From: Paramecium tetraurelia
Lineage: Eukaryota
Assembly (NCBI GenBank): GCA_000165425.1
Contig: CT867992.1
Span: forward strand, 186,001 to 250,000
Direction of reading: 5' to 3'
DNA: 64,000 nucleotides
In this document: one piece after another, positions 34,231-58,083 of the stretch
Layout: every line of letters begins with the position of its first letter
Position numbering within the stretch: position 1 is the stretch's first letter
The notes under the pieces: model-generated
Seen by the model: only the letters and a program-made list of their open reading frames with translations
Databases searched by the model: none
What the model was told of the DNA's origin: nothing
Made by a program: the position numbers and the translations under genes

Positions 34231-34344
34231 AGTATAAAAAGTCAGGTGATCTCATTAATATAACTAAATCATTTTCTGAAACTTAATCATTTAAAGGACT
34301 GTCTCCAAATATAGAGAAATTAAAACTAATCAAGTTGTTGTTGA
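34231..34344 (+). pseudogene. 3'-terminal fragment of the Rab gene at 49081-49852
   Basis: Matches the reverse complement of about 49081-49195 and ends ..NQSSCC*; upstream sequence is unrelated to Rab. Confidence 0.85.
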
Positions 34345-34573: not shown

Positions 34574-37288
34574 ATGGAGTAACACGAGGGATTCTTCAAG
34601 GAATTGAAACAAATCTACGATATTAAAATACCGATTCCAGAACCATCTGTCTTTTAATAAAATCATATTTAAAAGTTAATATTTTATTTCGATCTAACAA
34701 ATACTCAAAAATACTATGATTTAATGTCAAACTTATCGATTATTCATAGGTAAGAAAGAATATGGAATGGTGGATAATTATGTTAATTTTAATTTAATAA
34801 TAAAAAAAAAGAATAATAATCTATTTTCTGCTATTACTTCAATAAGTTACTATAAGATGATGAACAAATCAACATCTAAAATTTATTTAGATTTAGAATA
34901 TTTTTGTAAGAATTCATAAAAACTTAATAAAACTATTAGATAAAATTTGTGTTTCACTTTCTACAAAAGAACTAAAATGATAAGGAATTTTAGGATCTTA
35001 TAATAAATTATATTTATTAAATTCTCGATGGGTCTTTCGACGAGCTATAAGATATGATATGTGTGTATAGTACATAAAATAATGAGGAAATGAACTATCG
35101 TAAGATTTCATCTAAAAAAATACACTTTAATAAAAATAATTAATAGTAGAAATTTGACATTTCTTATATTATTTTATTGGATGAATTTTTGGATTACGTT
35201 TAATAAAAATAGGATGATTTTAATTAGATAGGGTTTATATGCTATCAGTATTTATAATCTTAAGTTGATGTAGTATTAAAAGAATTTGAGAAAGAACTTT
35301 TACAACTTTAAGATGACATTAAGCAAATGATTGAATTCCCTGTCAATCTGAATAATGAAATAGAAGTTAAATAAAATGTTTCATAATATTTAGAAAGTTT
35401 GAAGACTCTTATTTCTGAAATTTGCACAGTAGTTAATGTCGATGAAAGTTTGGATAAAATGGTAATAGGATTATTAAAAGCTTTAAATGATTAAAGATAG
35501 AAAATGTTAAAATGTTTAAATCAAATTTTTGAAGAAAATAGTTAATTTGAACACTATTTAAAAATAAATTATAAAGGTAAATTACCTAATGAAGTAGTTT
35601 AATAATTGCTTCAATTTTAATTTAAATTAGATGAATCTGATTTTAAAGTTTTGCAAGAAATAAGCAAATATTAATACAATTATGATGTAATAAAGAAAAC
35701 TATGCTTATAATGTCTATTAACTTAAAATAATGGTTTGAGTAATTTGATTTGTATCTTCCATAAAGCTTAGCATATTTCGGAAGAATACATCATCAAAAA
35801 GACAATATAAATTTAAATAAACATTATGTTATTGTTTTAGGTATGACAAAAGTTGGGAAAAGTACATTACTCAATATATTAAATAATCCAGAGAATATTA
35901 TTATTACTTAGGATAAGAAGTTCGATGTAAAATAAAAGAATAGTAAAATTCTATTATCTCATAAAAATACTAGTTAAACATTTTACACAGAAAATGTGGA
36001 TATTGGTCAATTTATATTTGTTGATACTCCTGGCTTACGTGATACTCATGGTGATAATAGAGTTTTCAATCATTTAAATATCTTTAATTAGATAAATTAA
36101 GTAAGAGACTAGTTTTTTCTATTTATGATTGATGGAGAACTGCTCTCAACAAATAAAAACGATTTAATCGATTCAATAGTTCAAATTAATTTGATTTTAG
36201 GAGATTAATTAGATGATTAATATCTTGAAAATATTATCATTCCTACTTTCACTAAAATAAGAGATGATTTTACTATGGAATAAATAATTACAAAATGGCA
36301 AACCGAGACAATGAAAGATATTACAGATTAGAAATAACTAAAAATATTGAATATAATTAAAAAAGCAATTGATGAATAACATTATGTTAAAATTTATTAG
36401 GCAGAACACTACGAAGTACATCAAGAACTAAATAAATTGGAATTAGAAATTTAATAGTTAAAAGATGAAATTTGTGAGTTGGTTGAAAAAGGAGAAGAAA
36501 GCAAGGAACAATAGGCAAAATTAAGACAAAAAAAAAAAGAGTTAGAATAATTAAACAAAGCTAGTTTATTCGAAGATAAAATGATTTAAATTAAATAGGA
36601 TATTTTGGGGAAATGCGAAAATATCTTAGAGAGGAAAAAAATAGCATTGCAAGGAAAATCAGATATTAATTAGAAGTTTGAATTCAAGTTATCTGATGAA
36701 GAGTAGCCACTATTAAATAAGTTATTAGCACATCGAGACAAATTTTATCAACAAATCGTAAACATAATAACAAATGAATTTATTGCTAAGATGCTTTTTG
36801 ATAATTCAATGAGTATAGATGAAAAGTTTAGTGTAAGATATCAAATAGATGATATAAATTTGGAAAGAATAGAAGATATACCTAAAGTACTAATTAGTGA
36901 GAAAATATAAAGTTAGATTGAGAAGCTTGATCGTTTTAATAATAATATAAAGGAGCATGATAAAAATGAGGATCCAACAAAAGTTGATTTTATGGAATTT
37001 AAGAAAAAATTCTAATTCATATGTGAAGCTTTTAAAAATGCTGCTTCTAAGCATCAAATTTTAATATATAAGTGGAATGAAGTAATTTAATTCCATAAAA
37101 TCTCCTTAAGCATACCCAATATATTAATTACAGTACCTTTAGTTCTTCTTATGGCGATATCTGCAGGGAATGAATTATTTAAAAATAGCCTTTTTGTGAA
37201 ATAGACAGAAAAAGAAAAAGAAGAGAAACTATAGTTAATCAAGATTCAGCAAACGTATTTCACATAATTTGAGAATAAAAGTAAATGA
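34574..37288 (+). CDS. Large AIG1/GIMAP-like TRAFAC P-loop GTPase, copy 1 (904 aa)
   Basis: Intronless ORF MEQHEGFFKELKQIY..; G1 GMTKVGKST, G2 SQT, G3 FVDTPGLRDT, G4-like FTKI; then coiled coil and a hydrophobic C-terminal segment. Confidence 0.85.
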
Positions 37289-37652
37289 ATAGTTATTTAT
37301 TTAAAATTATACAACATTTCTGTATAAAGGCTCTACTTTAATTCTTATTTTTAAGTTTTTTAAATTTTATTAAGATTTATAAATCAATATATAAATTCTT
37401 CCAGAAAAATTATTTTTGAAATTAGTTCTAGATTTCATTTTTTAGATTACCTATTGATTAGAATAGTTTTAGTATTTTTGTGATAACTTATTTTTGGATA
37501 TTTTCAAGATTATGATGTTTATATATATAAAATTTATAAATGATAAAGAAAGTCAAATTAAACTTAAAAAATAGATCTTAAAAGGATATTGAAATAAATG
37601 TTATCAGACATTAATAATTTAAATATTATATATTTGATAGGAGATGAAATAC

Positions 37653-40600
37653 TCATTTTTGTGCACTATTTTCATATTATTCTAAATCTTTAACAAATTA
37701 AAAGTGATTCATATCATCAAAATCTTGATTGCTATCATTTTTGATTGGATCAATAAAATATCCTTTAGTTTTTCGATTAATGGACTTAAATTCTACTTCT
37801 TTATTGAATGTAAACAAAAACTGATCTGGATATGATTGTTCTAGTAATTATTTAGTTTCTTCAGAGACTTACACTTTTCCTCTTTCTCCATTAGATTCCA
37901 TTTTATTAGAAATCATAACATCAGCCCCATAAACATCATATCTAACAATTTCAGTTCCCAAGATTCCTCCAATGACTTTACCCTATGATATAATATAATA
38001 ATTACTGTATGTATTCCAATTCTCATATCTAATCCATCAAATCCAATAATTGATCTAACTTATCTAATAATATCTATCATTTTAAATCCTAATTCAACAA
38101 CATTTTTAGCTTCTTAAGCTGGATTTCTTTATGTAACATCTACAATACCAAATGCAACATAACAATCTCCAATTGTATATAATTTATAAGCATTTTATGT
38201 TAAACATATTTTATCAAACTCAGTAAACAAATTCCTTAACATATTCACAACTTATTCTGGTTCTACTCTACTTGAATATTCAGTAAAACCAGCTATATCT
38301 GCAAATAATAGAGTAGCATCTTCAAATTAATCTACTAAAACCATTCTTTAATTACTATTAGATAAGAATTGCTTTAATATATGAGTAGGTAATAGATATT
38401 TAACTAAATTTTAAGTTTATAGTTTTTTTAATTCTAAAGATCTTTTATTATTGAATGTACCTAAATCCTAAAAAAATAAATGATATTGAACTATAAATGT
38501 CATACAACTCTAAAAAATAGTATAATATGCAATTGCACCATCCTTATAATGAATCAATACTATCAATAATTATGAGATAAAGAGGCAAAGGTTAAAATAA
38601 ACCTTGTACTTAATCTTAATAATTGAAAGTGAGCAGAAGAAACAAATTAATAAAATTCCTTCTGCTGCTTATAATTCCACTGATTTTTCAGGCATCAAAA
38701 GGAATTCTACAAGAATACTTATTAATATGCCAAAGTAAGTTATTAAGAAGTATTAATATTTGTAAAATGTATGCTTTAATTTTTTGTGTTACAAAATAGC
38801 CAAGATCAATAGCAAGATGGAAACTATAAATCGAATTACAAAGACTAGAAGCCAATTCTATAAATGTTACAAATACAATAGTGTAATAGTCTTTGATATG
38901 AACTAAATGAAATGTAAAGAAAGCATAAATACAATATTTATACCCTCCTTCTAATCCATGAATTCTTATGCTAATTCTTTTTAACTATCTTTGAAATCCA
39001 AATAGAATTTAGTCCTCTCTAACTATAAATCTTCACTTTTAAATTGTTCATCTTCATCAAATGATATTTTTTCTATTTCAATTTCATAATCTGGTGCTTC
39101 ATCTAATATTTCTATATAAAGATCTCTTCTTAATTTTTAGGATAAATCATGAAGAAGATTTGTTTAAATTTTCTCAAAAAATGATTCATCTTTTAAATTA
39201 TTAGAATGAACGCTTTCTTCTGCTTAATAAACAACAATAGGTGGTAAATTTCTATTGCTTTAATTTTGAATATTATTTTGACTACCAGAGTGTTATAATT
39301 GTATTGCACCTGCAATCTTTTAACCATCTTAAGCTTTCATAATCAATGTAGGTCCTCTTTGACCCCTTTTTCTTAAAGGTTGAATATCCTTTGATTACAT
39401 AGATTCTTTAAGTAAACTGAAACTAGTTGTATTATTCTCTACATTCTATTCTTTTTCCATTTTTACATTCTATTCTTTTTCCATTTTTACATTGTTCTCT
39501 TTAGGATATACATCAAATTGTTTAATCTATTAAGGGACTTTCAATTATCTGAAATCAGTTTTAGGAGTGACAGGATCCATTTTGGTTAGAGTGGGCATAT
39601 CTTATTAAGAAGCATCAAATTTTGGAACAAGCCCTTTCTTTTTTTTTACTTTTTTATCAGTGTTTCGTTTTATGGAGGTTACAATTTGCCAAGTAATCAA
39701 TTCTCCTTTTCCCTTCGCATTTACTTTAAGCTAGTTGAATTACAAATCTGGCATATTTAGTTCCATGTAAGCTTCATTAGAGAGGGTAATTTCTCCATCT
39801 TAACCAGTTGAACACACTCTACTTGTTGTATTAACAGTGTCACCTATTAATGAAAATTGTGGTTTATGATGACCAATCACACCAGCAATGACACGGCCAT
39901 AATGAACTCCAATTTTGATTTTGACGTTGCCAGATTATCCAAACTTGAATTTTTTAGCATATTCCATCATTTCTAAAGATAATTAAACAGCCTTTAAATA
40001 TTACATATTTATACTCTCTTTACTGCACTTTGATTGATGAATTTAGTTCCCTAATCGACGGCCTTTAAACCTCCAGCTGCCATAAATGTCTTTCCAACTG
40101 TTTCTATTTTTTGCATTCCATTTGAGACACATAAGCCATCAAATCCTCTAAATAAGCTATCTAATAAATTAACAATGTTTTCTTTTTCGACAGCAATGAG
40201 ATCATCAAATCCACAAATGTCACAAAATAAAATTGAAACTTCCCCTTAATTTTCTTATATCTCAAACACTCCCTCTAAAATTAATTAGAACTATAAATAT
40301 ACTTGCATTGATTCTATCTCTAATAAATTTCGGTAATAAAATTGATAACACATTAGTCATTGACGTAGTTTCTTGATTAAGAGTTGCAGCCAACATAAAA
40401 TCTTACTTTTCCATCATATGCAATTTATACTAAAGTGATATAAATAAGATCAATGTGACTAAAACTATTAAATCTCCGTTTATTATTTTGTAGTAATCAG
40501 TTCCAAAACTAAACTTTCTTAGGAACCCGACAACAGACAAAGTAGCTATGATAAAATTTAATAGTGGGATGTGCAACCTTGAGAATATAATGATTAAGAT

Positions 40601-43600
40601 ATAACATTAACTTAATAGGATATCATAGTTTCCTTCTTATTAAAAGTCTGAAATCATCTTTGTAAGCAATCTGATGCATGCAATGATTAGATTAATTTAA
40701 AAAAAATGTTTCAAGTAAATTCCTGAACAGATTATTATTTGCATTATTACTTAACTGCTTATACTTAAAATGTAGATTATAAAATAGGTTTAAGATTGAA
40801 TTTCATATCTATAAGTGAGTGAATAGATCATCAAAGCAAAGACTTCCAAAAATATAAGAGACAATCCTAGTTTGATTCTTTCAAATTGAATCCAAATTAA
40901 TTTTGATAGTCTTTTAAACTTCATTTCAGTATCTTTATTTAAGAATCTTAAAGTAAATTTATTGATTCTATCTTGATTTACTTTCAACTCACAAATTATG
41001 TCTTATATAGATATATCCATTTCATCTTTGTTTTTCTTAAATACTTTCCCAGCCAACTAAGCGAATCTTTTTATAAGATTGTGATATCTCTTTGCTCCAT
41101 TTTTCTATGCCTTTTACAGATAGATCTACACTTCTTAAAATTAAGCCTTATCAATTAGAGATGAACAAAATAATGGTTGAATGTATTCAATTACATTGCT
41201 TAGGCAAAATTAAGTAAAACCATAATAAATGAAAGCCAACCATGTTGAAGACACTGTAAACAATTCTAAAAAGCTCTCCATATTTTGAAAATAAGCAGAT
41301 AAGATTGAAGTCATCAACCAACATATTAAGTAAGTTGCAATAAAAGTTATCCATGTATATTTGGAATAAGCCGTAGATACCACTAATTTTACAATGTCAC
41401 TTAAGATCAAGAGTATTAATACCATTTATTTCAAGGTGTCAAATTAGATTTCATCTACTATTTGTAATGATTAATAGAATAATGCAGCATCCAACATGGC
41501 ATTTCCATTAATTTTCAAGATGAATGACAAAATTTTCTTCTTTTTGAAAATCTTAATATTGTGTTTGAATTGTTCTATATAAGTGATTGAATCCTTGTCA
41601 TATTATCGATCTAACTTTGATTTTAGACTCACTATTTATTAGATAAACAGTAAAATACTCTAATAAACAGTCAACCAAGCCCCTGTAAATATAGTTTGAT
41701 TCTAACTACAATAAGTTGCATATAGAAAAAATAAAATGTAAATTATGAGCAAGGATCTATAGAAAGAAAAGACTAATAAATCATCGTAGACTTCTGCGAA
41801 AATTCGACTTTCAAAGAACATCAAGCCACTCAAATCTAGATAATCTTTGAGACAAATATCTGATGTAGGAACAACCCACATTTCATTTAATAGGAATTTT
41901 CGATTCAAAGGATTATCCAGTGATTTATTTGAAGTAACTTTACGATTGAGTTTCAACTTGGTACTTCCTCTTTGATATTATTGGATTTAAATTGGATAGT
42001 GACAATATTGAACTCCTATATTTGATTAGCAGAACATATAGTTATCATTGTATGAATCACCAACAGCCAGAACTCTTTTATTGCCTATGAATTGAGTCTA
42101 TATGATTTGAATGATAGTAGCTTTTTACTTTTAATCCATTTTATAAGCTATTAAAGAGTTGCTAAAATAAAGAAGAAATTAGAAATGACTTAATAAGGAA
42201 CTGTCCTATAAAATAGTGTTGAAATATTCTCCACTCAATATGATACTATATGATTTGACTTCAGGATAGACAGCTTACTTTTCCTCCAAGGTTAGTGTTC
42301 GATGATGTCTATCAAGAGTACTCATTCTCATTGGTCTTGAACCCCATGATTCATCTAATTTTAAGGACTGTGAAAGGATGGTTAAATGATTCTTGATAAC
42401 CACTCTAGCATTCTCATTGTCTAGATATAACAGAATATCGTTTTGATTGAGTATTTTGGATTTGAATGCTACTGGTAAGACTCTTGTTAATTCATCTCCA
42501 CTCAACATATAAAGACTGAGTTCGGCAGATTTCATTTGATTTATTAACATTTTGGTGTCTTTTCTTATTAATTCTTTGACTCCAATGACTTAAACAATTT
42601 GCATATCTTTTGAGATTTATTGAAATGCAGACATTCCTTCTTCACCTTAGAATCGAGACATAAAAATGCTAGCATCCTTCTCCTTCAGATACACCTTTGA
42701 GTAAATGACTGATCTCATTCCACTCATATGCAACTTTTGGAATACTTTATCCCAGTATTCTCTGCTGGATTTATCCACATCAATATTTACAGGTAATTGG
42801 TTTGTTTCTTCTCTCAAAATAAATATATATTAAAGACTTTCCATTGGATCCTGCTCATTTATTAACATGAACTTCTCTTATAGTTTATCTGGATAGAGCA
42901 CCAGTATTCCTAACTAATTGCTTCCATTATGATATACAGCCATAACTTAAAATTCCAATACTTCTCCAAAGAAATCCACAATGTAAATAACCTTCCCATT
43001 GTATTCATTACAACATAAAAACTTAATATCTAGCAGACCTACAAATCTCAGTACTTCTTAATCAAATGAGTATGATGATGAATCATGCATAAATTAATCT
43101 TCACTAGGAGAATATCTTGATACTATTTCTTAACAAAGTAAAAGCGACAAAACGGATTCTTAATACATTAACTTATTCTATCCGTGAATAAGATGCTTAT
43201 AGAATTCATTCTCTCCATGATAAACTATTTCGACCTCTTCTTCAATGGCTTTGTCCAATTAAAATGATTTTTTTGCACTATATTATCTTTTCATATCGGA
43301 TTAAGAATGCTCTAAAAATTTCTTACTCCTAATTGATCTGCTGTTTTCAAAAGATTTCTGGTCTTCCTTATAAGATTGCTGTTTAATCAGTAATTCTTCC
43401 TCCTATGACTAACTTATCCCTCCTTAACTAACTCCAACCACTTGTACAGGTGCTGTTACGATAGCCTTCTTATTGAAAAAAGGTCTTGGTTTTACATTGC
43501 ATAATTCAGGTGTAACTTTATAATGAGTGTCATCAAACTCTTCTACTCTCATATTTTCTATTTCTACCTCCATCTCATCTAATGGATTTGCTATGCTCCT

Positions 43601-45171
43601 ACTTGATGCTAGTTCTGATTTATTAAAATCACAACTAGACATCTTCTTAGAATTCCAGTGCTACAACGTTAATTTAAATATTCCAGTATGTCTTACCTTT
43701 TTCGATTGTACATCTGCATCTGATTCATCTATTTCTTCAATCTAAAAGTTCGGATCATTTTTTATTTAATTCTACAATTGATCCTTAAATGTATTCCACT
43801 GATTCTTAATCATGTTATTGTGATTAAACTTATACATCGTATCTTCAACTATTATTGCATGAATCCTCTACTCCCCATTAGTAATTGTGCCTGTCTTATC
43901 AAAACATACAAACTCTGTCATTACCATGTCTCCTACAGACACAGGATTTAGTTATAAATAATCTATATTAGTACTCTTGTACCCTGTGTAATTTGTATAT
44001 TTTATGTGAGCATTAATAACTTCAATCAAATCTATACAGTTATAGAAATAGATTGGTGTTGTTTTTAAATACTGCAATAGATAGAATATTAGAGTTGGAG
44101 TATTAAAATCCGCTTAATTATAAGGTAAACAAGCAGCAAACGATGCCAAAAACCAACTGATCAGAGAAACTATTAATGAAATGCCCAGAGTCAGGGCAAA
44201 GAACATACTAGACTTTTAAACAAAAAATGATTTCTTCTCAGATTTCTTCATGTTCAAATAACAAAAACAGTTATTCCCTGTTTACAAGACTATTCCAATT
44301 ACATATTAACAGGTTCTGATTTGTTCCTCTCTGAAAATAATGTTTTTGTTATCAAAATATTCCCCCTTAGGATCCTTTTTTAATTTTATAAATCCATTTA
44401 TCTATGATTCAGTAATATTATATTAAATTGATCCTGTGAGCAACTTTTTGTAATCGAAGCCCTGAATTCTGTTTCTCCCATTTTTTAACATAGTTAATTA
44501 CGTTGGTTATCTGGTTTAATCTAAAGTTAGTCCCTAGAAGTTTTGGGTTTGTACTTATAGAATTTCGTCTGAAACATCAAGCAAAAGCATATCTGCTGGA
44601 CACACTTCGTTGCGTTTTAGATATATTATATCACCTTGTTCGACGCATCCCCAAAAACAATTCTCATATAATGATATTTTAGGTTTTTTAAATGAAGATT
44701 ACTGCTGTTATTATTATGTTACTAGGTATTTCGGTTTATCTTTTCTTAGTTTACGAAAGCGCGTGACTCTTCTATTATTAACTACATCATCTTGTGTCCT
44801 CTTTATATGGTCAAAGTAGAGTGCTTTTGATATCTATAGGACGAAATGCATTGTTAGCGGAAGCACGTAAACAACAACATCTTCTTCGGTTGCCCCAAAA
44901 ACTGCGTAATGAAGTATCATGACTATGAAATAAATAACAACGCCAATTCTCTCAAATTACTTGAGAAACAAGCTCAGGATTGTAAAATTGATCAAAGTAC
45001 TTTTAACTTTGTTGTCACTTTTATTTAGCATGTTCACGCATTCCCCTTGTTCCATTTCTAACTGTGATATGTACTCTTATTTACATGGTATTTGTACTTA
45101 ATCTGCTTGGTTGTCACATTTTAGTATTTGCTTTTCAAATATTCAAAAATTAAAAGTGAAAGAGATTTCAT
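37653..45171 (-). CDS. Alveolate P-type-ATPase-like/guanylyl cyclase fusion protein
   Basis: P4-ATPase-like N-terminal half (DNKVKST..LFLKQFER, CPADMLLL, CFDKTGTIT), TM blocks, then two cyclase domains (ILFCDICGFD..KIETVG..QFSLIGDTVNTTSR and LLFADIAGFTEY..KLYTIGDCY..RYDVYGADV..MESNG). Start taken at 45171 via a predicted 23-nt intron; alternative ATG at 45055. Confidence 0.93.
39441..39493. repeat. in-frame 24-nt tandem duplication within the guanylyl cyclase gene
   Basis: ACATTCTATTCTTTTTCCATTTTT x2 plus a partial unit; encodes a repeated NVKMEKEQ on the minus strand. Confidence 0.8.
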
Positions 45172-45787
45172 AATATTTTATTGGTATTTTCAAACTTAAA
45201 TTGCACACTTTAAATGACAAGAGACAAATTAATTAAAGAAATGTAATCAAATATACTCTAAACGATGACAACTTTCAAGAATTTATATCAATACAATATT
45301 ATCTACATTTAATTTAGATATAACATAAGAAAATATATAATTATAATAATTGGATGTTTAAAATTTTGATATATTAACTAATTTTATTAGTTTATGGATC
45401 ATCAAACAATTGAAATTAAGTATAAAATCAGAGACAAAAGCATTTTATTACTTCCGTAAAAGAGATTATGTCTCCTTCTTGTTGACTAGGGTAAAATTCT
45501 AATTTAAATAAGATGTAGGTACTATAATATTTCGAACATATTACAATTTATCTTAGTTTTGGTTTTGATGAGATTAGATATTTTCTGGTTTTGATATGCT
45601 CATTACATCACCAGGTATTCTGAATATATATAGACTATTCTTACTATTGACATTTATTGATTTCAATTTTCAGATCCTTAGATATTTAAATTCAATTTTA
45701 GTTGCTTTACAATAATTATAATAATAAACATTTAATCTATTTTTCTTCTCAATCACTTTCTATATATTATTTACTCATGTACAGTGA

Positions 45788-45965
45788 CAATCGCATATTA
45801 TACTATCTTTTAAAGTTGCATGACATTTATAGTTCAATATCATTTATTTTTTTAGGATTAGGTACATTCAATAATAGAAGATCTTTAGAATTAAAAAAAC
45901 TATAAACTTAAAATCTAGTAAAGTATCTATTACCTACTCATATATTAAAGCAATTCTTATCTAAT
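45788..45965 (+). pseudogene. inverted fragment of guanylyl cyclase coding sequence
   Basis: Reverse complement matches about 38358-38537 (ATAAGAATTGCTTTAATATATGAGTAGGTAATAGAT..). Confidence 0.85.
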
Positions 45966-46124
45966 AAAAGAAAAATCAACAAATTTTTTTTAAATTATTT
46001 ATTGTATTTAATTCTCTTTTTAAAGACTAATTGCAAGTTTAAAAATTATATAGAAAGAATTGTCATTAAATCTCTTTATATTTTATAAATAATAATTGTA
46101 TTATTTTTATATTGTTATTAAAAC

Positions 46125-48836
46125 TCACTTTCTTGTTTTCTCTAAAAATGATATATAGTTTTGCTGAACCTTTAATAAATTAATTGTCGCTTATTTTTAA
46201 ATTTCTTTTTATGTCACTAAAACGCTATTAATAAAAATTTTTTCACACACTTTAGATATTATAATAGCATTATATAACATATTTAATTTTTTTTGAAATG
46301 TAAAAGGTAAGTCAAATTTTTCATTACATAAGGCTATTCCGTTAATAAGAGTAGAAGTTTATTCTCTAAAAAGGTTAAGAAGGATTTTTAATTGAAATTA
46401 AAAATTTTCAAAGTTAACCTTTTAAGGATCCTAATTTTAATCGTCAAATTTAGATATAATGTTATTAACATGATTAAGTTCATTAATCTAATCTTATATC
46501 TATTGATTAATTAGGTATTATGATATATCAGAAAATGTGTTCATTTTTTTATTTTTTATCTTGTATAAAATGAGAAATTTTTCGTTTATACTTATGGAAC
46601 CATCAAAAAGCATCTTAGCAATAAAATTATTTGTTATAAGATTTGAAAGATGTTAATAAAAATTATTTCGATGAGGTAATAACTTTTCTATATGATGCTT
46701 CAATTCAGGAGTTAATTAGAGTTCAAAATTCAAAGATTAATTAATATCTGAATTTTCTAGCTATGTTTTTTCCTTCATTTTTAATATATTTTCACATTTC
46801 CTTAAAACATCCTCTTTAATTTATTTTATTTTTTGTTAGAATAATCCCTCACAATCTACTAATTTTTATTCCTAAATTTTTGTTTTTAAACATGCCTATA
46901 ATGCCATGAATTCATCCACTCTTTCTATATCAAATTCACAGATTTAATCTTTTAATGATTTAATTTCTAATTTCAGCTACTACACTTTTTCATGGATTTC
47001 ATAGCGTTCTGCCGAATAAATTTTGATATAATTTTCTTGATCTATTGCATTTTTAATGATTTTCAAAATGTTTAATTACTTTTGATCTGTAATATCTTTC
47101 ATGGTCTCTGTTTACCATTTTCTAATTATTTATTCCATAGTAGAAGCATTTCTAATTTTAGTGAATACAGGAATGATAAAATTTTCAAGATATTTATCGT
47201 CATTTTAATCTCCTAGCATATTATTAATTAGAGTTATTGAATCGATTAAATCGTTTTTCGTTGTCTAAAGCTGTTCTCCATCAATCATCAACAATAAAAT
47301 TTGTTAACTTACTCTAGTTATTGAATTAAAGATATTGAAATGATTAATACCTCGATTAATATCATAAGTATCACGTATCCCAGGAGTATCAACAAATAAA
47401 AAATTACCAATCTCCAAATTTTCTGTCTAAAATGTTGAACTACTATTTTTATGAGACAACAGAATTTTATTATTCTTTTATTTTACATCGAACTTCTTAT
47501 CCTAAGTAATAATAATATTCTCTGGATTATTTAATATGTTGAGTAATGTACTTTTCCCCACTTTTGTCATACCTAACACAAAAACATAAGGTTTATCTAA
47601 ATTGGCATTTTATTGTTGAGGGATTATTCTCTTAACATATGCTAAACTTTATGGAAGATATAAGTCAAACTACTTAAACTATTAATTTATATCCAAAATA
47701 ATCATGTACAAAGTTTTCTTTATAACATCTTCATTGTATTAATACATTTTTAATTTTTCTAAAATTTCAATATCAGATTCATGTAATTGAAATTTAAATT
47801 GAAGTAGTTAATTGAATACTTCATTATGTGGTTTATCTTTTGACTTTATTCTCAAATAAATTTCAAATTCGGTATTTTCTTAAACAATATTGTTTAAACA
47901 TTATATCATTTTCTATCTATTTTTATATATGATCTATTTAAATTATTCTGCCATTTTGTAGAAATCCTTTTCACTTAAGATTATGCATATATCAGCAATA
48001 AAAGTCTTCAAACTTTCTAAATATAATGAAACATTTTAATTAACTTCTATTTCATTATTCAGATTGATTGGGAATTCAATCATTAGCAATATGTCTTTAT
48101 AAAGTTGTAAAAGTTCCTTCTCAAATTCTATTAATACTACATCAACCTAATATTATACATACTGATAGCATATAAATCCTATCTAATTAGGAACATCCTA
48201 ATTAAATTAAACGTAATTCAAAAATTCATCCAATTTCTCAATAAATGAAATGTCAAATTTATTCTATTAATTAATTTTTTTCATATGTATTTTTTTAGAT
48301 GAAATCTTACAATAATTCATTTCTTCTTTATTCTATATATTTTACACACATATGATATCTTATAGCTTTTTGAAAGACCCCTCAAGAATTTAATAAATAC
48401 AATTTATTATATTTTCTAAAAATTCCAAACAATTTTAGTTCTTTTGTAGAAAGTGAAACACAAATTTTATCTAAAAGTTTTATTAAGTTTATATGAATTC
48501 CTTGAAAAATATTCTAAATCTAAATAAATTTTAGATATTGATTTGTTCATCATCCTATATTAACTTATTGAAGTGATAGCAGAAAATAGATTATTATTCT
48601 TTTTTTTTATTATTAAATTAAAATTAACATAATTATCCACCATTCCATATTCTTTCTTACCTATGAATAATCGATAAGTTTGACATTAAATCATAGTATT
48701 TTTGAGTATTTGTTAGATCGAAATAAAATATAAACTTTTGGATATGATTTTATTAAATGACTGATGGTTCTGGAATTGGTATTTTAATATCGTAGATTTG
48801 TTTAAATTCCTCGAAGAATCCCTCGTGCTACTCCAT
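46125..48836 (-). CDS. Large AIG1/GIMAP-like P-loop GTPase, copy 2 (903 aa)
   Basis: Intronless ORF MEQHEGFFEEFKQIY..GMTKVGKST..FVDTPGIRDT..FTKI..FLEKTRK*; length divisible by 3; inverted paralogue of copies 1 and 3. Confidence 0.85.
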
Positions 48837-49080
48837 TAGATTTTGTCAATTTTTAGTTAATTTTATTAATATCATTAGAGTTTTTGTAATTCTATTACAT
48901 TTAAAAACTTGAATACGAAAAAAATAATTAATTCAGAAGTTTTTGGAAACATATAAAATATATTGAATCTATGTAATTTTTTAATTATATATATAGTTTA
49001 TCTTAAACGATATGACTTTTAAGAATATAAGTTTGTTAAAAATTATATAAAAATAACTAAATTTAACTTAAAAATAATGA

Positions 49081-49852
49081 TCAACAACAACTTGATTAGT
49101 TTTAATTTTTATCTATATTTGGAGAGTGTCCTTCAAATGATTAAGTTTCAGAAAATGATTTAATTATATTAATTGGATCACCTGACTTTTTATTTACTCT
49201 TGTAGCTTATCTAAATGATTCACTACTAAAATACTTTAGTAGTACTAACTTAGCTGATTATACAAATGCCTAAAGAAGCAATATGGTTTATATATACTTC
49301 CTCTACATTTTCCCCAGTTTTTGCAGATGTTTCAAAAAATAAACTAAATTTATTATTATTCATAAAAGACTCACCCTCTTCTATTTAAACTTCTCTTGTT
49401 AAATCGCATTTGTTCCCTACTAAAACTTTTATAATCTCAGGATGTGCATGTTATTCTATTTCATTCATCCAAATTGACAATTAATCAAATGATTCTTTTT
49501 AGTTGACACTATATACAATGAAGACGGCGGGCCGATCCACGATAAAATCCTCTAATCACGCTACGAAATTATTCCTAACCAGCCTAATGAAAACAATGAG
49601 ATTTGAATATATACTGTATCCCATATTTAGAGTTCCACCAAACCTTTATCAACCTAAACCAATTTTTTGATGAATTCCACCCCTATTGTTGCCTTTATGT
49701 TATGCTTAAACTCCTCATTTTGATAGCGTTACACAATACAGCTTTTTCCAACAGCTAAGTTGAAAATTCTTAATACATTAATCTCCAATGAGAATGAATT
49801 TGAATAAAGGGACTTTCTCTTTACTCAATTCTAATTGTTAATTTTGATTCAT
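49081..49852 (-). CDS. Rab-family small GTPase with an apparent +1 frameshift near 49530 (pseudogene or sequence error)
   Basis: LFKFILIGD..VGKS..ATIGVEF..WDTAGQEQFRSVIRGFYRGSA[extra C]AVFIVYSV..GNKCDL..ETSAK..SSCC*; three short introns. Confidence 0.85.
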
Positions 49853-49995
49853 TAGAAAATCTATATTATTAATTAACTCAATATACACTCTAAAAGAGTA
49901 GCAAAAATTGATAAGATATCAAAATTTAAAACTTAAAGTTTATCAGACAAGTGAGAAAATAATTTTTATTGTTAAATTAAAAGTATATATTTATA

Positions 49996-51198
49996 ATGCA
50001 ATTTCATTTACAACATTCTTCTTTAATTGAGAGCTTTCTCACTCAATTTGGTCTATAGAAACAAAATTAGGTGGTTGAATTCTTGATAACTATGGGAATA
50101 GATTTGGCAAATAAGATAGGAGCTAGAAACCCAAAAGAATTATACTATTAATTAAAACAACTATCAAGTATCAATATTACATTATAAATCACAGAAAATA
50201 TTAAGGAACAAACTTCAGGGGATATAAAAAATGAAATAAAAACAATTCAAAAACAAATCAGAGACTTAAATGATCTAATCTAAATTTCTTAAAGAGAAAA
50301 TAAAAATGCTTAAGGAACACTCAAAAAATACATTCAACCTACCTAGATTAATTCAAATCGATACGAATAATATGAATAGTGTGAGGATAATTATGTTCAT
50401 CGGCATCATTACCAAAATAAACATTAAACATATAACACACAGAGATCGCAATCAAAGTCTCCAGTCCACTTAAGTGATCGTACTCCTCATCAATTAAAGC
50501 ATTCCAGATCTCAATCCTAAAGAAATCTAACTCCAAAAATTACTGAATCACCTCCTCCCCCTTAAATCGTATACATCAACAATATGCATAACAAATTCGA
50601 TATCAAACCATAATTTGATGATCGATAGATGTAATCATTACTTCCATCATATTCTAGCAAAAAATTGATGTATGGAGATTCCAAAAACTCAGACAGAGGT
50701 CGATACTTTGGTAAAGGTCCTTCTCCTTAATAATTAGTTTACTCCTCTCAAACTAGTGGTGGTCTTTCTTATAGGCAATATCCTGGGTAAGTCATTCATC
50801 ATTAAACGGATAAATAGAAATAGAATACTTCACCTAAGAAATTGCCTGCCTATCTATAGAATGTGGAATCTAAAATCAAACCGCTGGTTGATTAAGATAA
50901 GCTCTAATATAGGGAGACCTAAAGAGATCGGGAAAGTAATAAATAACAATAGGGCACTGTAAAAAAATTTAATAATAATTCCTTACAATAGTAGAATAGC
51001 GCTGAAACGGACACCTTCTTTGATATCCAGTAATATATTTAGGATTAGAAAAAATGTTAGTTTTCTCCAGTGTAGGAAATTAATGACGATGAGAGAAATG
51101 AAGATATCGAAGCCAGTGATACTTTCTCTAATTTCAGTCCACCGAATGAGGAAGTAAAGGAATTCTTTCAGCAAGAATATCTTTAATAGCGTAGATGA
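49996..51198 (+). CDS. hypothetical low-complexity protein
   Basis: Open frame with a short intron near 50168; ends ..FSPPNEEVKEFFQQEYLQQRR*. Confidence 0.6.
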
Positions 51199-51227
51199 TA
51201 TAAGATTATTGAATTTCTAATTATTAT

Positions 51228-51840
51228 TCATTAATTAGTCGCTCTGGATAAAACATCGTAAAATTAATCCTTCGTCACATACCCTTAACTAACAAATGTA
51301 TTTCAATAATTTACCTTGGGTTTTTGCTATTAGCCTCCTAAATCATCAGCTTTAATTCATCATCTGACATTGTCTCTCCTAATTCAAGAGCTACCTTTTT
51401 TAAGTTTTCAAAAGTGATGAAATTATCATTACCTTAAGAAAATAAATGAAAAGCCCTTTCTATTTCTTCCTGTGATTCTTTTGCATTCTAATTATCAGTC
51501 AACATAAATGTATACCATTTTCTCTGTCATGATTTGAAGAAACTCATTGAAATCAATTGTATTTTTATTTTCCTTTGAATCGTTGTTATTATTAAGATTT
51601 TATTTTAAGTTTTAAATCTCTTCTTTTCCTGGTTCAAAGCCTAATGCACGTAAAGCAACTTTTAATTCTTTTTCATCAATCGTACCTATAAATAATTAAA
51701 TTTTCGTAACAACCTGATCCATCCACATCGAATAAGTCAAAAGCTTCTTTGATATCCTTCTTTTACTTTTCACTAAGCTCTTAACGGAATGAATGACCTG
51801 CTTTTGCTTTCCTTTATCCTTTTTTGGCTTTTCCTTGCAT
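51228..51840 (-). CDS. Centrin (EF-hand)
   Basis: [77 protein letters not shown]; three introns. Confidence 0.9.
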
Positions 51841-52360
51841 TTAACTTATTATTGTTTAATAAAAATATAAAATAAGTTGGCATATTCAATCTAAGTTATT
51901 GAATAACTCAAAACTCCATTAATCAATGAAATATAATTTCTAAGATTAAAACATAGATTATGATAGATAATTATTGACCTTATCTTAGTGATAAGGTTGT
52001 CAATATCATTGAATTCATAATGTTTTAGATGCAGTTTATTAGAAATTATTTTTAATTGTTACATGATCAATCATCTAAATTAAAATGATTCTGTCTATCT
52101 AACAATTATTGTTTTCACTATTGATTATGCTCACTCTCATTATAAGATGTAAAATTTAAGTCTTTGAACTAGAAAATTAGCTTATATAATATAATATTGA
52201 TGTCAAAAAAATAAATTATAAACCACGATTCAATGTTGATACAAAGAAATATTAAAAAATAAAAACAATGTGGATGAATGCTTCGAAAAGAATACAAAAA
52301 TTATTCAAAACTAATTATCATGATTCTGATCTATAATATTCTAATTTATTATTATTTTTA

Positions 52361-52861
52361 TCAACAAACCCCTGCTGTTAGTATTTGAACTAGTTCTTTA
52401 GGATCTCCTCCATAAGTAGATATTTCAGATATCTAATCTAAAATTTCAAAACCAGAGATTATTTCTCCAAATGCAACATGTTTGCCATCAAGTTATGGAC
52501 AAGCAGTTAAAGTAAAGAAGAATTATGATCCATTTGTATTAGCCCCTCTATTTGCCATTGAAACAATTCCTCTTTTATCATGTCTAATATTAAAGTTTTC
52601 ATCCTTGAAATAATTTCCCCATATACTAGTACCTCCTGTTCCATCTCCTCTTTCATAATCTCCTCCTTGAGCAATGAAATTTTCAGAACATCTATGAAAG
52701 TTTGTTCCCCCGTATTTAGTTTAACACAATTTTCTGAAATTTTCACAAGTTTTTGGACATTATTAATCGAATAATCTTATTATCACTTAAACAGGCTATC
52801 TTTTTCCAACTTACATAGTCATGAAACAGTCTTTCTTGCTTTTAGATGATTTATTCCCCAT
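52361..52861 (-). CDS. Cyclophilin with N-terminal myristoylation-like motif
   Basis: Intronless 166 aa: [63 protein letters not shown]. Confidence 0.9.
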
Positions 52862-53551
52862 TTGATTTAATTATTTTGATAATAATTATTAGTAAATTAT
52901 AAAAAGCACACATGGCAAAAATATCATTGAATATGTGAGACTTTCTGATTTTCTTCATTGAAAATTACTTTCTACTTTATTTTCGTATTCCTTAACCACC
53001 TTTCTTAAATGATAAATTTTGATTTCCGCCTATATTAGAAAATTGACCTTAATATTACAGATAAGATTGATAATAATAATATTATGTTGGAATCCATATT
53101 TTTTAGTTAAATTCAAATTATGGAAGTTATGGTTTTAATAAGAATATATAATATTTAATTTTAAGGTTAAAAGGCGGGATATAAATAAGATTATTTTGTA
53201 ATAAGAACCAATTAATAAAATTAAAATTAGTATCAATATTTCACTATTTAGATTTTTGAAATATTAAGCAAAACTTTTTTAATTCTTCATCCTTTTAATC
53301 AATATGAGTGGTGAATGTTAATTTTCCAAATTATATTAAATAATAGACATTAGAATTATTTATCCCTTATTAATCAAGAGATTAAATCTAATGATGATTT
53401 GAAAAAAGCCATTTTTTTGTAGAAATTTCTAATCTTCCTAGCCCCAGAAACTCTCATCAATTCATTTTCCATTTATTCTTCTAATCACAAATTAAAAATA
53501 TTATTCTTTCATTTTTGCTTGTTATAATTGAAAAATATATATAGGCTATTG

Positions 53552-53738
53552 TAGCAAGATGGAAACTTTAAATCGAATTACAAACACTAGAACCAAATAC
53601 AATTAATGTTGCAAATACAATAGAGTAATAGTCTTTGATATGAACTAAATGAAATGTAGAGAAAGCATAAATACCATGTTTATACCCTCCATCTAATCAA
53701 TGAATTCTTATGCCAATACTTTTTATCTGTCTTTAAAA
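53552..53738 (-). pseudogene. fragment of guanylyl cyclase coding sequence
   Basis: Diverged direct copy of about 38810-38996 (TAGCAAGATGGAAAC..GTCTTTGATATGAACTAAATGAAATG..). Confidence 0.9.
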
Positions 53739-53752
53739 ATACTATATATTAT

Positions 53753-54182
53753 AATGTCAACTAAAAAGAATCATTTGATTAATTGTCAATTTGGATGAAT
53801 GAAATAGAATAACATGCACATCCTGAGATTATAAAAGTTTTAGTAGGGAACAAATGCGATTTAACAAGAGAAGTTTAAATAGAGGAGGGTGAGTCTTTTA
53901 TGAATAATAATAAATTTAGTTTATTTTTTGAAACATCTGCAAAAACTGGGGAAAATGTAGAGGAAGTATATATAAACCATATTGCTTCTTTAGGCATTTG
54001 TATAATCAGCTAAGTTAGTACTACTAAAGTATTTTAGTAGTGAATCATTTAGATAAGCTACAAGAGTAAATAAAAAGTCAGGTGATCCAATTAATATAAT
54101 TAAATCATTTTCTGAAACTTAATCATTTGAAGGACACTCTCCAAATATAGATAAAAATTAAAACTAATCAAGTTGTTGTTGA
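53753..54182 (+). pseudogene. 5'-truncated copy of the Rab gene
   Basis: Near-identical to the reverse complement of about 49081-49510 (VNQKESFDQL..SSCC*); lacks G1-G3. Confidence 0.9.
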
Positions 54183-54426
54183 TCATTATTTTTAAGTTAA
54201 ATTTAGTTATTTTATAGAATTTTTAACAAACTTATATTCTTAAAAGTCATATCGTTTAAGATAAACTATATATATAATTAAAAAATTACATAGATTCAAT
54301 ATATTTTATATGTTTCCAATAACTTTTGAATGAATTATTTTTTTCATATTCAAATTATTAAATGTAATAGAATTATAAAAATACTTATGATATTAATAAA
54401 ATTAACTAAAAAATTGAAACAATCTA

Positions 54427-57072
54427 ATGGAGTAACACGAGGGATTCTTCTAAGAATTGAAACAAATCTACGATATTAAAATACCGATTCCAAAACCATC
54501 AGTCATTTAATAAAATCATATCCAAAAGTTTATATTTTATTTCGATCTAACAAATACTCAAAAATACTATGATTTAATGTCAAACTTATCGATTAATAAT
54601 AGCAAAGAAAGATAATGGCAAGGTGGGTAAATATTCTAGTTTTAATTTAATAATAAAAAAAGAGAATAATAATCTATTTTCTGCTATTACTTCAATAATT
54701 TAATATAAGATGATGAACAAATCAACATTTAAAATTTATTTAGATTTAGAATATTTTTGTAAGAATTCATAAAAACTTAAAAAAACTTTTAGATAAAATT
54801 TGTGTTTCACTTTCTAAGAAAGAACTAAAATGATAAGGAATTTGAAGAACTTATAATAAATTTTATTTATTAAATTCTTGATGGAACTTTCGATAAGTTA
54901 TCAGATATCATATGTGTGTATAATATATAGAATAAAGAAGAAATGAACTATTGTAAGATTTCATCTAAAAAAATACACTTTAATAAAAATAATTAATAGT
55001 AGAAATTTGACATTTCTTATATTATTTTATTGGATGAATTTTTGAATTACGTTTAATATAAATAGGATGTTCCTAATTAGATAGGATTTATATGCTATCA
55101 GTATTTATAATCTTAAGTTGATATAGTATTAAAAGAATTTGAGAAAGAACTTTTACAACTTTATAAAGACATATTGTAAATAATTGAATTCCCAGTCAAT
55201 CTGAATAATGAAATAGAATCTATTTAAAATGTTTCACAATATTTAAAAAGTTTGAAGGCTCTTATTTCTGAGATATGCATAATATTAAGTGAAAAGGATT
55301 TTTACAAAATGGCAATAGAATTTTAAAAACTCATATTTAAAAATAGAGAGAAAATGATATAATATTTAAACAATATTGTTTAAGAAAATAGCTAATTTGA
55401 AATTTATTTGAAAATAAATTCAAAAGATAAACCACCTAATGAAGTATTCAATTAACTACTTCAATTTCAATTTAAATTTGATGAATCTGACATTTAAATT
55501 ATAGAAAAATTAAAAATGTATTAATACAATGAAGATGTTATAAAGAAAACTTTGTAAATGATTATTTCGGATATAAATTAATAGTTTAAGTAGTTTGACT
55601 TATATCTTCCATAAAGTTTAGCATATGTTAAGAGAATAATCCCTCAACAATAAAATGTCAATTTAGATAAACCTTATGTTTTTGTATTAGGTATGACAAG
55701 AGTTGGAAAAAGTACATTACTCAACATTTTAAATAATCCAGAGAATATTATTATTAATTAGGATAAGAAGTTTGATGTAAAATAAAAGAATAATAAAATT
55801 CTGTTGTCTCATTCAAATAGTAGTTCAACTTTTTAGATGGAATATTTGGAGATTGGTAATTTTATATTTGTTGATTCTCCTGGATTACACGATACTGATG
55901 ATACTAATAGATGTATTAATCATATCAATATCTTTAATTCAATAACTAGAGTAAGTTAACAAATTTTATTGTTGATGATTGATGGAGAACAGCTTTAGAC
56001 AACGAAAAACGATTTAATCGATTCAATAACTCTAATTAATAATATGCTAGGAGATTAACAAGACGATAAATATCTTGAAAATTTTATCATTCCTGTATTC
56101 ACTAAAATTAGAAATGCTTCTACTATGGAATAAATAATTAAAAAATGGTAAACTGAGACCATGAAAGATATTACAGATCAAAAGTAATTAAATATTTTGA
56201 AAATCATTAAAAATGCAATAGATCAAGAAAATTATATCAAAATTTATTCTGCAGAACGCTATGAAATCCATGAAGAAATGCAGTAACTGGAATCAGAAAT
56301 TTAAAGGATGTAAACATAATATTTTAAGAAAAAAAAGGATGATAAAGAACGCTAGGTGTTAGAGGAGTAGATTTAACTTAAATAAGAGGAGTTAGATAAG
56401 TTGAATTAGGAAGGTTTATTCTAAAAAAAAATACAAAATATTAAGGAAGATGTTTTAGGGAAATGTAAAAATTTATTAGAAAGGAAGGAAAAAATATTGA
56501 AAGAAAAATAAGATATTGTTTTGAATTTTGAACTCAAGCTAACTCCTGAATTGAAGTATCATATAGAAAAGTTATTAACTTATCGATAAAAATTTTATCA
56601 ACATCTCTTAAACAATATAACAAATGAATTTATTACTAAAATGCTTTTTGATAATTCAATAAGTTTAAACGATAAAGAGAGTGAAATATTTCAAACATTA
56701 AAGATAAAAATGAACAGACTTTCAGATATACCAAAAGAACTAATTAATCAGAATATATAAGATTAGATTAATGAACTTAATCAATTTAATAATATCATAC
56801 TAAAATATGATCATTGGGATTAGGATCCTTAAAAAGTTGATTTTTAATATTTTCAAATTTAGTTAAGAGTCCTTAAAAGCCTTTTTATAGGCATAGATTA
56901 TACTAGTATCTTTTAATACACTATTTTACCATTTATATTAATAACAACAATTAATTACCTATTTAATAACAGCATTTTTGTGACATAAAAAGAAAAAGAA
57001 AAATAAGAGAAAATGAAAATGTTAAACATTCAGCAAAAATATATATCAATTTTAGAGAAAACAAGAAAGTGA
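54427..57072 (+). CDS. Large AIG1/GIMAP-like P-loop GTPase, copy 3 (881 aa)
   Basis: Intronless ORF MEQHEGFFQELKQIY..GMTRVGKST..FVDSPGLHDT..FTKI..ILEKTRK*; length divisible by 3. Confidence 0.85.
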
Positions 57073-57309: not shown

Positions 57310-57970
57310 TTATTAATTAGAATTGTTTTAGTATTTTTGTGATAAATTATTTCTGGATATTTTCAAGATTATTTTTATATATATATAATTTTTATAAGTG
57401 ATAAAGAAAGTCAAAATAATCTTAAAAAATAGATCTTAAAATAATATTCAAATAAATCTTATAAGACATTAATAAATTTATATTAAATATTTGATAAGAG
57501 ATGATCTGGATATGATTTTTCTAGTAATTACTTAGTTTCTTCAGAGACTTATACATTTCCTCTTCCTCCATTAGACTCCAATTTATTAGAAATCATGTCA
57601 TCAACAAAATTTTTAGCTTCTTAAGCTGGATTTCTTTATGTAACATCTACAATACCAAATGCAACATAACAATCTCTAATTATATATAATTTATAAGCGT
57701 TTTATAATACCTAAATCCTAGCAAAAAAAATGATATTGAACTATAAATGTCATGCAACTCTAAAAAATAGTATAATATGCAATTGCACCATCCTTATAAT
57801 GAATCAATAATATCAATAATTATGAGATAAAGAGGCCAAGGTTAAAATAAACCTTGTACTTAATCTTAATAATTGAAAGTGAGCAGAAGAAACAAATTAA
57901 TAAAATTCCTTCTGCTTATAACTCCACTGATTTTTCAGACATCAAAAGGAATTTTACAAGAATACTAATT
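57310..57970 (-). pseudogene. internally deleted copy of the guanylyl cyclase 3' end and 3' flank
   Basis: Successive direct matches to about 37452-37647, 37822-37923, 38094-38198 and 38458-38723. Confidence 0.9.
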
Positions 57971-58083
57971 ATATTCAGAAAAATAATGAATATTTTATGC
58001 CAGAGACTAATAAAATAAAATTGATTATATTTTTATCCTATTTAATTTCTTGGCTGCGTATCTAGATTAATTAATTAAAAATA

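Follow-up and report, generated by a model that had tools for sequence, protein, structure and literature searches.

Large, fast-evolving GTPases acting in cell-autonomous defence are well described for animals and plants. To our knowledge, GTPase defence of this kind has hardly been explored in free-living protists, which constantly live with intracellular bacteria. Paramecium is a classical host of intracellular bacteria, and it is amenable to RNA interference by feeding, GFP fusions, and microinjection. Here, three neighbouring genes encoding GTPases of ~900 residues in Paramecium tetraurelia are described. They are located in a stretch of 64,000 nucleotides of macronuclear DNA (contig CT867992.1 of assembly GCA_000165425.1, positions 186,001 to 250,000 of the forward strand), which is called the window below and whose own numbering is used throughout.

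Typical GIMAPs are about one third the size of the Paramecium GTPases, and some of them carry a C-terminal hydrophobic segment. Septin, Toc34/159, and AIG1 constitute the "paraseptin" group (Leipe et al. 2002, as cited in PMC11238149), and members of this group are activated by the pairing of G domains (PMC8857920, PMC11238149). Membership in AIG1/GIMAP (IAN) is defined by an AIG1 domain (pfam04548/cd01852) at E ≤ 1e-4, and a coiled coil following the G domain is traditionally part of the definition (PMC8857920). The true septins of Paramecium are a separate family (PMC11238149). Up to 16 paralogues of GBPs are reported for P. tetraurelia (PMC6400534).

Three open and constrained GTPase genes

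Translation with genetic code table 6 revealed three ATG-to-TGA open reading frames (ORFs), open throughout, at exactly the positions given in an earlier note on the window. Copy 1 (34574..37288, plus strand) encodes 904 aa, copy 2 (46125..48836, minus strand) encodes 903 aa, and copy 3 (54427..57072, plus strand) encodes 881 aa. Their pairwise protein identity is 62-76%. Copy 1 is composed of an N-terminal region (residues 1 to ~410), a G domain (~415-600), and a variable C-terminal third; the C-terminal tail of copy 3 has a deletion. The Pfam family MMR_HSR1 is matched in copy 1 (E 5.3e-8, residues 419-534), copy 2 (E 2.7e-8), and copy 3 (E 8.2e-8) with 32.8-34.3 bits, above the gathering score of 21.9, and in 16 of 18 family members in total. 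It is very likely that these genes encode functional GTPase paralogues of ~900 residues, in which a constrained TRAFAC-type G domain is combined with an N-terminal region without a detectable relative and a variable C-terminal third, and that they form a birth-and-death cluster.

The public gene models of P. tetraurelia are truncated at the N-terminus (744 aa for copy 1, 678 aa for copy 2, and 518 aa for copy 3). They miss 160-363 N-terminal residues which are conserved in the sister species; the model for copy 1 corresponds to residues 161-904 only. The N-terminus MEQHEGFF is kept in all three copies and the models from sister species are 901-932 aa long, supporting the full-length frames. 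The deposited models of the three copies need correcting. Each copy contains 5-9 GTA..TAG intron candidates, none of which coincides with a gap in at least 3 of the 13 other family rows (orthologue protein models), and hidden in-frame introns were rejected for this reason. No additional copy or fragment of the family was found by tblastn across the 64 kb, and Rfam and tRNA scans gave no matches. The G+C content of the ORFs is 0.21-0.22, versus 0.27-0.31 in the neighbouring genes.

TGA is the only stop codon in this code, and young pseudogenes in slow neutral decay could seem intact through it. The truncation of all three public models, the degenerate look of the tails of copies 2 and 3, and the ratio dN/dS (omega) of residues 1-285, which is not significantly below 1, fit such pseudogenes, yet this explanation is very improbable. 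The coding frames contain no TGA, while each of the five alternative frames contains 7-53. In a neutral simulation, in which the observed 363-588 substitutions were placed randomly with the observed spectrum (2000 trials per direction), 5.2-8.8 in-frame TGA codons were expected, and only 0-0.6% of the trials were free of stops (P ≤ 0.006 per pair). All 14 gaps in the three pairwise alignments of the ORFs (3 to 51 nt) are in frame, extending what the earlier note had reported for the indels traced there; the gaps that are multiples of three number 0 of 14 in the 340-bp upstream flank and 7 of 22 downstream. The split between copy 1 and copies 2 and 3 predates a speciation, yet all are open, and sense transcripts are present.

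With the method of Nei and Gojobori (NG86), dN/dS is 0.59-0.70, and pS exceeds pN (p 1.3e-6 to 0.006). A pairwise maximum-likelihood (ML) codon model (F3x4, kappa free, likelihood-ratio test against omega = 1) gave an omega of 0.47-0.64 for the whole gene (p 8.7e-8 to 0.004) and 0.21-0.29 for the G domain (residues 401-600; p 4.5e-9 to 0.005). Even for the youngest pair, copies 2 and 3, omega of the G domain is 0.29 (p 0.005). It is 0.58-0.81 for residues 1-285, not significantly different from 1; 0.22-0.87 for residues 286-400, significant in one of the three pairs (p 0.014); and 0.50-0.61 from residue 601 to the end (p 0.004-0.049). Omega is therefore not near 1 throughout, the low value of the G domain being the clearest departure. 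Selection has kept all three copies open, their G domains are under purifying selection, and neutral decay of the three copies is excluded. That selection retained the extra GTPase copies, as had been proposed, is borne out by the open frames and the G-domain omega, set beside the fragmentary state of the Rab and guanylyl cyclase (GC) pieces duplicated with them.

Three oligo-dT stranded RNA runs with the same species label, whose conditions are not recorded, were mapped to 37080-57079 at ≥97% likeness. The sense depth per bin is 0-0.78 for copy 2 and 0-1.06 for copy 3. For the last 209 bp of copy 1 and its 3' flank, the depth is 0-0.09, with about one read at the 3' end in each of two runs. 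The depth is 0-1.15 for the GC gene and 10-14 for the Rab gene. The GTPase copies are transcribed, very weakly, and are not silent. Plus-strand reads (depth 0.8-2.3) were also observed on the Rab fragment at 53755-54421, upstream of copy 3. They may be misplaced reads from the Rab gene, as the flanks differ by 2.2%, or represent the 5' leader of copy 3.

The G domain and its relatives

The sequence motifs indicate a generic TRAFAC-type G domain: G[ML]T[KR]VGKST, a near-invariant Thr of switch I, D[TS]PG[LIF]xDT, and FTK. They include those given in the earlier note (GxxxxGKST, D[TS]PG, and TK). G423, G428, K429, D484, P486, and G487 are near-invariant. AIG1/GIMAP proteins share this TRAFAC G domain, with GxxxxGKST and a G3 motif of the DTPGxxDT type, and their genes likewise form clusters with birth and death.

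Judging from profile comparisons, the similarity to AIG1/GIMAP may also extend past the P-loop. The family alignment matches P0045, an AIG1-domain protein (34.6 bits, cut-off 27), with an hhalign probability of 96.8% over 146 columns, in a comparison run with no negative control. In the PDB, a broader G-domain profile matches GIMAP4 (3lxx) at profile positions 43-192 of 214 (E 3.9e-5), with matches to the P-loop only scoring equally or better. The listed PDB rows of Era, Der, and HflX are of that kind, mostly ~30 positions around the P-loop with similar or better E. ESM Atlas, queried with the P. octaurelia homologue, returned AIG1/MMR_HSR1 clusters at 0.90 for the whole protein, a borderline feature likeness that serves as a lead only. 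In contrast, Pfam AIG1 (PF04548) is matched by none of the 18 members at E ≤ 5 and by none of the three window copies at E ≤ 1. Membership in AIG1/GIMAP was rejected as the AIG1 domain is absent from all 18 members. The Paramecium family differs further in the lack of the conserved Asp of G4 and in the addition of 410 unrelated N-terminal residues. Thus, of the label "AIG1/GIMAP-like" used in the earlier note, the remote similarity of the G domain stands and the family assignment does not; judged from these profiles, the label is a reasonable lead as far as the G domain is concerned. As for the coiled coil of the earlier note, a heptad-like stretch was seen at 601-647 in four of six proteins, but its maxima on a heptad score of our own (0.66-0.75) do not exceed the 95th percentile of shuffled sequences (0.70-0.75).

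Septins are the best PDB profile matches that extend past the P-loop. Septin-9, septin-3, and Cdc10 are aligned over ~80 residues, from G1 to just past G3, where the alignment ends. Septin-9 ranks first for the family profile (E 0.0016), and the E value of septins reaches 7.9e-6 with the broader G-domain profile. Pfam Septin, on the other hand, is not among the best 25 of 31 families listed for the 18 members.

Dynamin-like GTPases, including LeoBC, are matched weakly. Dynamin_N is matched in 11 of the 18 members, with the best E of 0.023, below the gathering score, and the bacterial family LeoBC from the PADLOC defence set is matched in four of five proteins (E 1.6e-5 to 9e-3) over 70-115 residues, corresponding to G1-G3. 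These matches are below the family cut-offs. Unlike dynamin-like proteins, the Paramecium GTPases have a G domain of ~190 rather than ~300 residues, and no homology to the stalk or paddle. The order of the G domain, a helical-looking region, a hydrophobic segment, and a short tail is, we presume, reminiscent of membrane-fusion GTPases of the mitofusin or atlastin type. Taken together, the profiles weakly link the G domain to septin, GIMAP, and dynamin-like GTPases.

IRG and GBP resemble the Paramecium GTPases at the system level only, in multi-copy local clusters, fast change, and lineage-specific expansion. The Paramecium GTPases do not belong to them by sequence; neither GBP (PF02263) nor IIGP (PF05049) is among the best 25 of 31 Pfam families listed. 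In NCBIfam, only sub-threshold matches to small_GTP and Era were obtained.

Similar G domains are also found outside the family. An 831-aa protein shares only the G domain (hhalign 98.3%, columns 409-557). P0041 (L001 3001-4560), a partial protein from a metagenome genome of Pseudomonadota, carries a RickCE-like catalytic domain (Pfam E 2.9e-16) together with a similar G domain (hhalign 96.4% to the GTPase family, 125 columns). A scan of prokaryotes with P0041 recovered its own record only. This fusion could represent mimicry of a host or exchange with an intracellular bacterium.

The N-terminal region is of an unknown kind, as had been noted: its 410 residues have no relative in Pfam or PDB. 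In ESM Atlas, residues 1-400 of the P. octaurelia homologue showed a borderline feature likeness of 0.85. A second degenerate G domain or an internal repeat was considered and rejected, as hhalign comparisons of the N, G, and C parts with one another gave 0.1-0.3%. The C-terminal 300 residues have no match in Pfam or PDB, either. Most members carry a hydrophobic segment close to the C-terminus, at a distance of 40-60 residues. It forms the highest 19-residue hydropathy peak (1.74-2.51) in 9 of 18 alignment rows, among them seven of the eight full-length proteins of the core clade. In copy 1, it is located at 845-863 (Kyte-Doolittle 2.11).

Distribution, rate of change, and history of the cluster

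A profile search of 1.84 billion representatives (cut-off E ≤ 1e-3) returned 59 matches. All eight of the longer family matches that were looked up (615-949 aa) are from species of the Paramecium aurelia complex, and the others examined are G-domain-only matches or short fragments. The collection queried also includes proteins of Tetrahymena, P. bursaria, Stentor, and others, among which no member of the family was detected. Scans of metagenomes (127 pattern matches) and viruses (142 pattern matches) contained no relatives. In the searches made, the family is restricted to the aurelia species.

In an ML tree of 17 family proteins (excluding the three truncated models from the window, the 335-aa fragment P0014, and P0204), copy 1 was clustered with CAD8202983 from P. 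octaurelia (support 100/100), and copies 2 and 3 with two other P. octaurelia proteins (100/98). A clade of P. primaurelia and P. pentaurelia is sister to these two groups. The P. sonneborni proteins and A0BEE2, a P. tetraurelia paralogue on another scaffold, branch deeper. Such a topology indicates that the split between copy 1 and copies 2/3 is older than the split between P. tetraurelia and P. octaurelia.

The GTPase adjoins the GC orthologue in P. octaurelia, P. primaurelia, and P. pentaurelia, based on accession order and shared contigs, so this arrangement predates the tetraurelia-octaurelia split. A second P. octaurelia contig contains a GTPase with GC fragments, like copy 3. Two family copies are present on one contig in both P. 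primaurelia and P. pentaurelia, and three members have consecutive accessions in P. sonneborni. These clusters agree with the local expansion described in the earlier note. The family is also uncharacterised, as stated there. No mention of six gene identifiers (GC and A0BEE2, which are confirmed, and four neighbours, which are guessed) was found in the paper texts searched, and nothing on the family appeared in literature on Paramecium with GIMAP, AIG1, or cell-autonomous immunity. The identifiers of the GTPases, guessed from gene order, and of GC are absent from the available supplements of PMC3091696 and PMC5485702. Table S2 of the Caedibacter study PMC5814942 contains no GSPATT000285xx or CAK5753x/5754x, and is uninformative as it appears to be limited to genes of enriched Gene Ontology terms.

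The GTPases change much faster than their conserved neighbour. The GC protein of P. tetraurelia is 96.7% identical to that of P. octaurelia, 94.1% to P. primaurelia, 94.4% to P. pentaurelia, and 89.6% to P. sonneborni. For copy 1 and its closest relatives, the identity is 72% (N part) and 62% (C part) in P. octaurelia, 52% in P. primaurelia, 52% in P. pentaurelia, and 34% in P. sonneborni. Between P. primaurelia and P. pentaurelia, 17 of 2447 aa differ in GC. In the two GTPase orthologue pairs, every 100 aa of the G domain contain 2-8 differences, and over the last 300 aa the number is 14-30 per 100. On these protein comparisons, the GTPase family changes ~10 to 40 times faster than the syntenic GC. 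Assuming that GC has a low omega, as conserved enzymes typically do, the change of the C-terminal third between P. primaurelia and P. pentaurelia would be close to neutral or above it. Among eight full-length proteins, conservation is lowest at 631-660 and 811-870. The variable tail described earlier is indeed the fastest-changing part of the protein.

The name of the best Pfam match, MMR_HSR1 or "50S ribosome-binding GTPase", might suggest a conserved one-to-one housekeeping GTPase, for example in ribosome assembly, and weak matches to Era, Der, and RsgA point in the same direction. This is extremely improbable. Those matches reach little beyond the P-loop, and ~700 further residues have no relatives. 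The searches made recovered no family member beyond the aurelia complex, the copy number of the family varies between species, and its identity to the sister species is 72% versus 96.7% for the GC neighbour.

The GTPase genes were duplicated as a part of a larger unit, composed of the 3' end of a Rab gene, the GTPase gene, and the 3' end of the GC gene in convergent orientation. Self-comparison with BLASTN aligned 34234-36991 with 54070-56844 (81% identity) and with 49193-46410 (80%), and 45962-49513 with 57236-53750 (88%). There is one full copy each of Rab and GC, and the other positions are occupied by fragments. The intact GC gene (A0BG69, GSPATT00028571001; 37656..45171, minus strand) is convergent with copy 1, and the deposited 2473-aa protein covers 45171-37656 with tblastn. 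It encodes a P-type-ATPase-like part and two cyclase domains (Pfam Guanylate_cyc E 5.9e-50, plus Hydrolase). It is the intact parent of the GC fragments. The intact Rab gene (~49084..49852, minus strand; both ends are approximate, being read from the frames) lies immediately upstream of copy 2, on the same strand, with Pfam Ras at E 2.5e-22 and 1.2e-12 on its exons. It is spliced, its 31-nt intron (49583-49613) being supported by 11-13 reads per RNA run. The only frameshift in this gene, an extra base at 49529, is missing from 10 of 11, 11 of 12, and 11 of 11 RNA reads and from a DNA contig, so that the gene is only falsely frameshifted. It is the intact, expressed parent of the Rab fragments. 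Another extra base, at 53442, was seen in comparison with the DNA contig only. Both are probably assembly errors or strain differences.

Upstream of copy 1, a fragment of the last Rab exon is found (34234..34344, plus strand, by BLASTN), whose frame ends with NQNQSSCC, matching the C-terminus of Rab. Upstream of copy 3, BLASTN detected the 3' half of Rab, truncated at its 5' end (53750..~54180, plus strand, the end being approximate). It is abutted by a GC fragment (53489..53746, minus strand; aa 2032-2114, 65% identity), where 38810-38996 is aligned with 53552-53738 at 89.8%. Downstream of copy 2, another GC fragment (45654..45965, plus strand) corresponds to aa 2149-2247 of 2473 with 53% identity in tblastn; 38356-38535 and 45966-45788 are 95% identical. 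Downstream of copy 3, internally deleted GC fragments (57468..57972, minus strand) correspond to aa 2125-2213 at 91% and aa 2294-2433 at 46%, with BLASTN pieces at 86-96% identity. The GC fragments range from 86 to 140 aa out of 2473. The decay of co-duplicated neighbours reported in the earlier note holds for these pieces, but not for the two full-length neighbours, GC at copy 1 and Rab at copy 2, which are intact.

Divergence along the GTPase genes is mosaic, with dS from 0.03 to 0.8. Between copies 2 and 3, the 676-bp upstream flank differs by 2.2% and the ORFs by 13.7%. Over residues 1-140, copy 1 shares 91% identity with copy 2 and 74% with the P. octaurelia orthologue, whereas from residue 286 onward it is closest to that orthologue. 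The higher similarity of the N-terminal part to copy 2 than to the orthologue indicates, at the sequence level, that the 5' 850 nt and the upstream flank were homogenised by gene conversion within P. tetraurelia.

In P. octaurelia, the annotation divides the orthologue of copy 1 between two proteins, P0010 (554 aa, N part) and P0014 (335 aa, C part), on the same contig of 355,725 bp; they may represent a broken gene or an annotation split. P0020 and P0024 are short, decayed-looking relatives. These records of split and decayed members suggest loss as well as gain. In all likelihood, the locus is an old and still active birth-and-death cluster beside a conserved GC gene.

Some other features of the region were observed. 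A 24-bp tandem repeat (2.2-2.6 copies) at 39440-39502 inside the GC gene encodes repeated NVKMEKEQ. DNA run X1, which covers 30 of 30 bins including intergenic DNA, has a 28-bp insertion after 45448, upstream of the start codon of GC; its first bases, TACAG, resemble one end of an internal eliminated sequence. A Q-rich 400-aa ORF (49996-51198) is located between the Rab gene and an EF-hand gene. Its plus-strand RNA depth is 0.2-3.3, and no Pfam match above cut-off was obtained for it.

Possible role of the GTPase family

A mechanism may be proposed for these GTPases. The hydrophobic segment near the C-terminus would anchor the protein in an internal membrane. The G domains would pair or assemble on the membrane in a nucleotide-dependent manner, as in their septin, AIG1/GIMAP, and dynamin-like relatives. 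The variable C-terminal third would determine which membrane or partner is engaged. The chances of this predicted anchoring and assembly are about even. The GTPases could then play a role in conflict or recognition, for example by acting on vacuoles or membranes that hold intracellular bacteria.

Like the fast-evolving clustered defence GTPases, which are a functional class rather than a family by sequence, the genes of this locus undergo birth and death in local groups, and their proteins change at an accelerated rate. A role in conflict or recognition is the best fit because the fast protein change and the lineage restriction are combined with retained local duplicates in a genus that rarely keeps them. 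Recent single-gene duplications are very rare in Paramecium, the median being 28 per genome, and they preferentially involve genes that have lost their partner from whole-genome duplication (PMC10195154), which adds weight to the argument from retention. The GC neighbour retains its whole-genome-duplication partner, A0BHR5; no near-identical partner of the GTPase was found in database and profile searches. We put the explanation as a whole, functional aurelia GTPases that are membrane-anchored, assemble, and act in conflict or recognition, slightly short of even probability. The GTPases are a tentative and rather doubtful candidate when the role in defence or recognition is taken by itself.

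Several observations weigh against this explanation. The G4 motif [NT]KxD is incomplete: T/N-K/R is present, and the position of Asp is occupied by R, N, E, K, or G (TKIR[DN], TKVN, TKLE, etc.), so guanine specificity is unproven. Pfam AIG1 is absent, Septin and GBP are not among the best families listed, and Dynamin_N stays below its gathering score. The hydrophobic segments of copies 2 and 3 are weak (1.52 and 1.53), with the deletion of copy 3 lying there, and the membrane anchor may therefore be lost in two of the three copies. Omega does not exceed 1 in any region or pair among copies 1-3 by pairwise ML (0.21-0.87). N-terminal omega does not differ from 1 in five of six comparisons and C-terminal omega is 0.50-0.61, so that weak constraint could suffice. 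Part of the divergence of the C-terminal third among orthologues could be due to gene conversion by diverged paralogues instead of point substitution. The RNA depth of the GTPases is 0-1, against 10-14 for the adjacent Rab gene.

These points are shared in part by another explanation, in which the proteins are weakly constrained GTPases of a membrane or organelle, functioning in membrane remodelling or only in the sexual cycle (autogamy or conjugation). Extra copies would be tolerated, and the fast change would reflect low expression and relaxed constraint. The overall omega of 0.47-0.64 with none above 1, the very low RNA depth in the three runs, the G+C content below that of the neighbours, and the weak matches to Dynamin_N (11 of 18) and LeoBC are consistent with it, as is the presumed likeness of the domain layout to membrane-fusion GTPases. 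Genes of the sexual cycle also evolve fast. We consider this explanation possible, with a probability well below even. It does not readily account for the constraint on the G domain in all three copies, the youngest pair included. A core remodelling GTPase would also be expected beyond the aurelia complex, yet the searches covering Tetrahymena, P. bursaria, Stentor, and others revealed none. Furthermore, single-gene duplicates are almost never kept in Paramecium (PMC10195154), yet at least P. tetraurelia, P. octaurelia, and P. sonneborni have local arrays of this family, and P. primaurelia and P. pentaurelia each have a contig with two copies.

The conflict or recognition role can be put in a more specific form, which is unlikely. 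The family would be aurelia-specific, membrane-anchored defence or recognition GTPases with an architecture unlike GIMAP, IRG, and GBP, in which the conserved G domain serves as an engine, flanked by the unknown N-terminal domain of 410 residues and by a hypervariable module for targeting at the C-terminus. They would diversify by local duplication, loss, and gene conversion, and be among the very few families to escape the genus-wide ban on single-gene duplicates. If this were true, the P0041 fusion would be a hint of mimicry or exchange involving hosts and their intracellular bacteria.

The family offers a concrete and testable candidate, being restricted to one lineage, with several local copies kept and the G domain preserved. 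Even if its role is not defence, the 410-residue N-terminal domain is new, the public gene models need correcting, and the locus clearly illustrates how gene conversion and birth-and-death evolution proceed in a ciliate.

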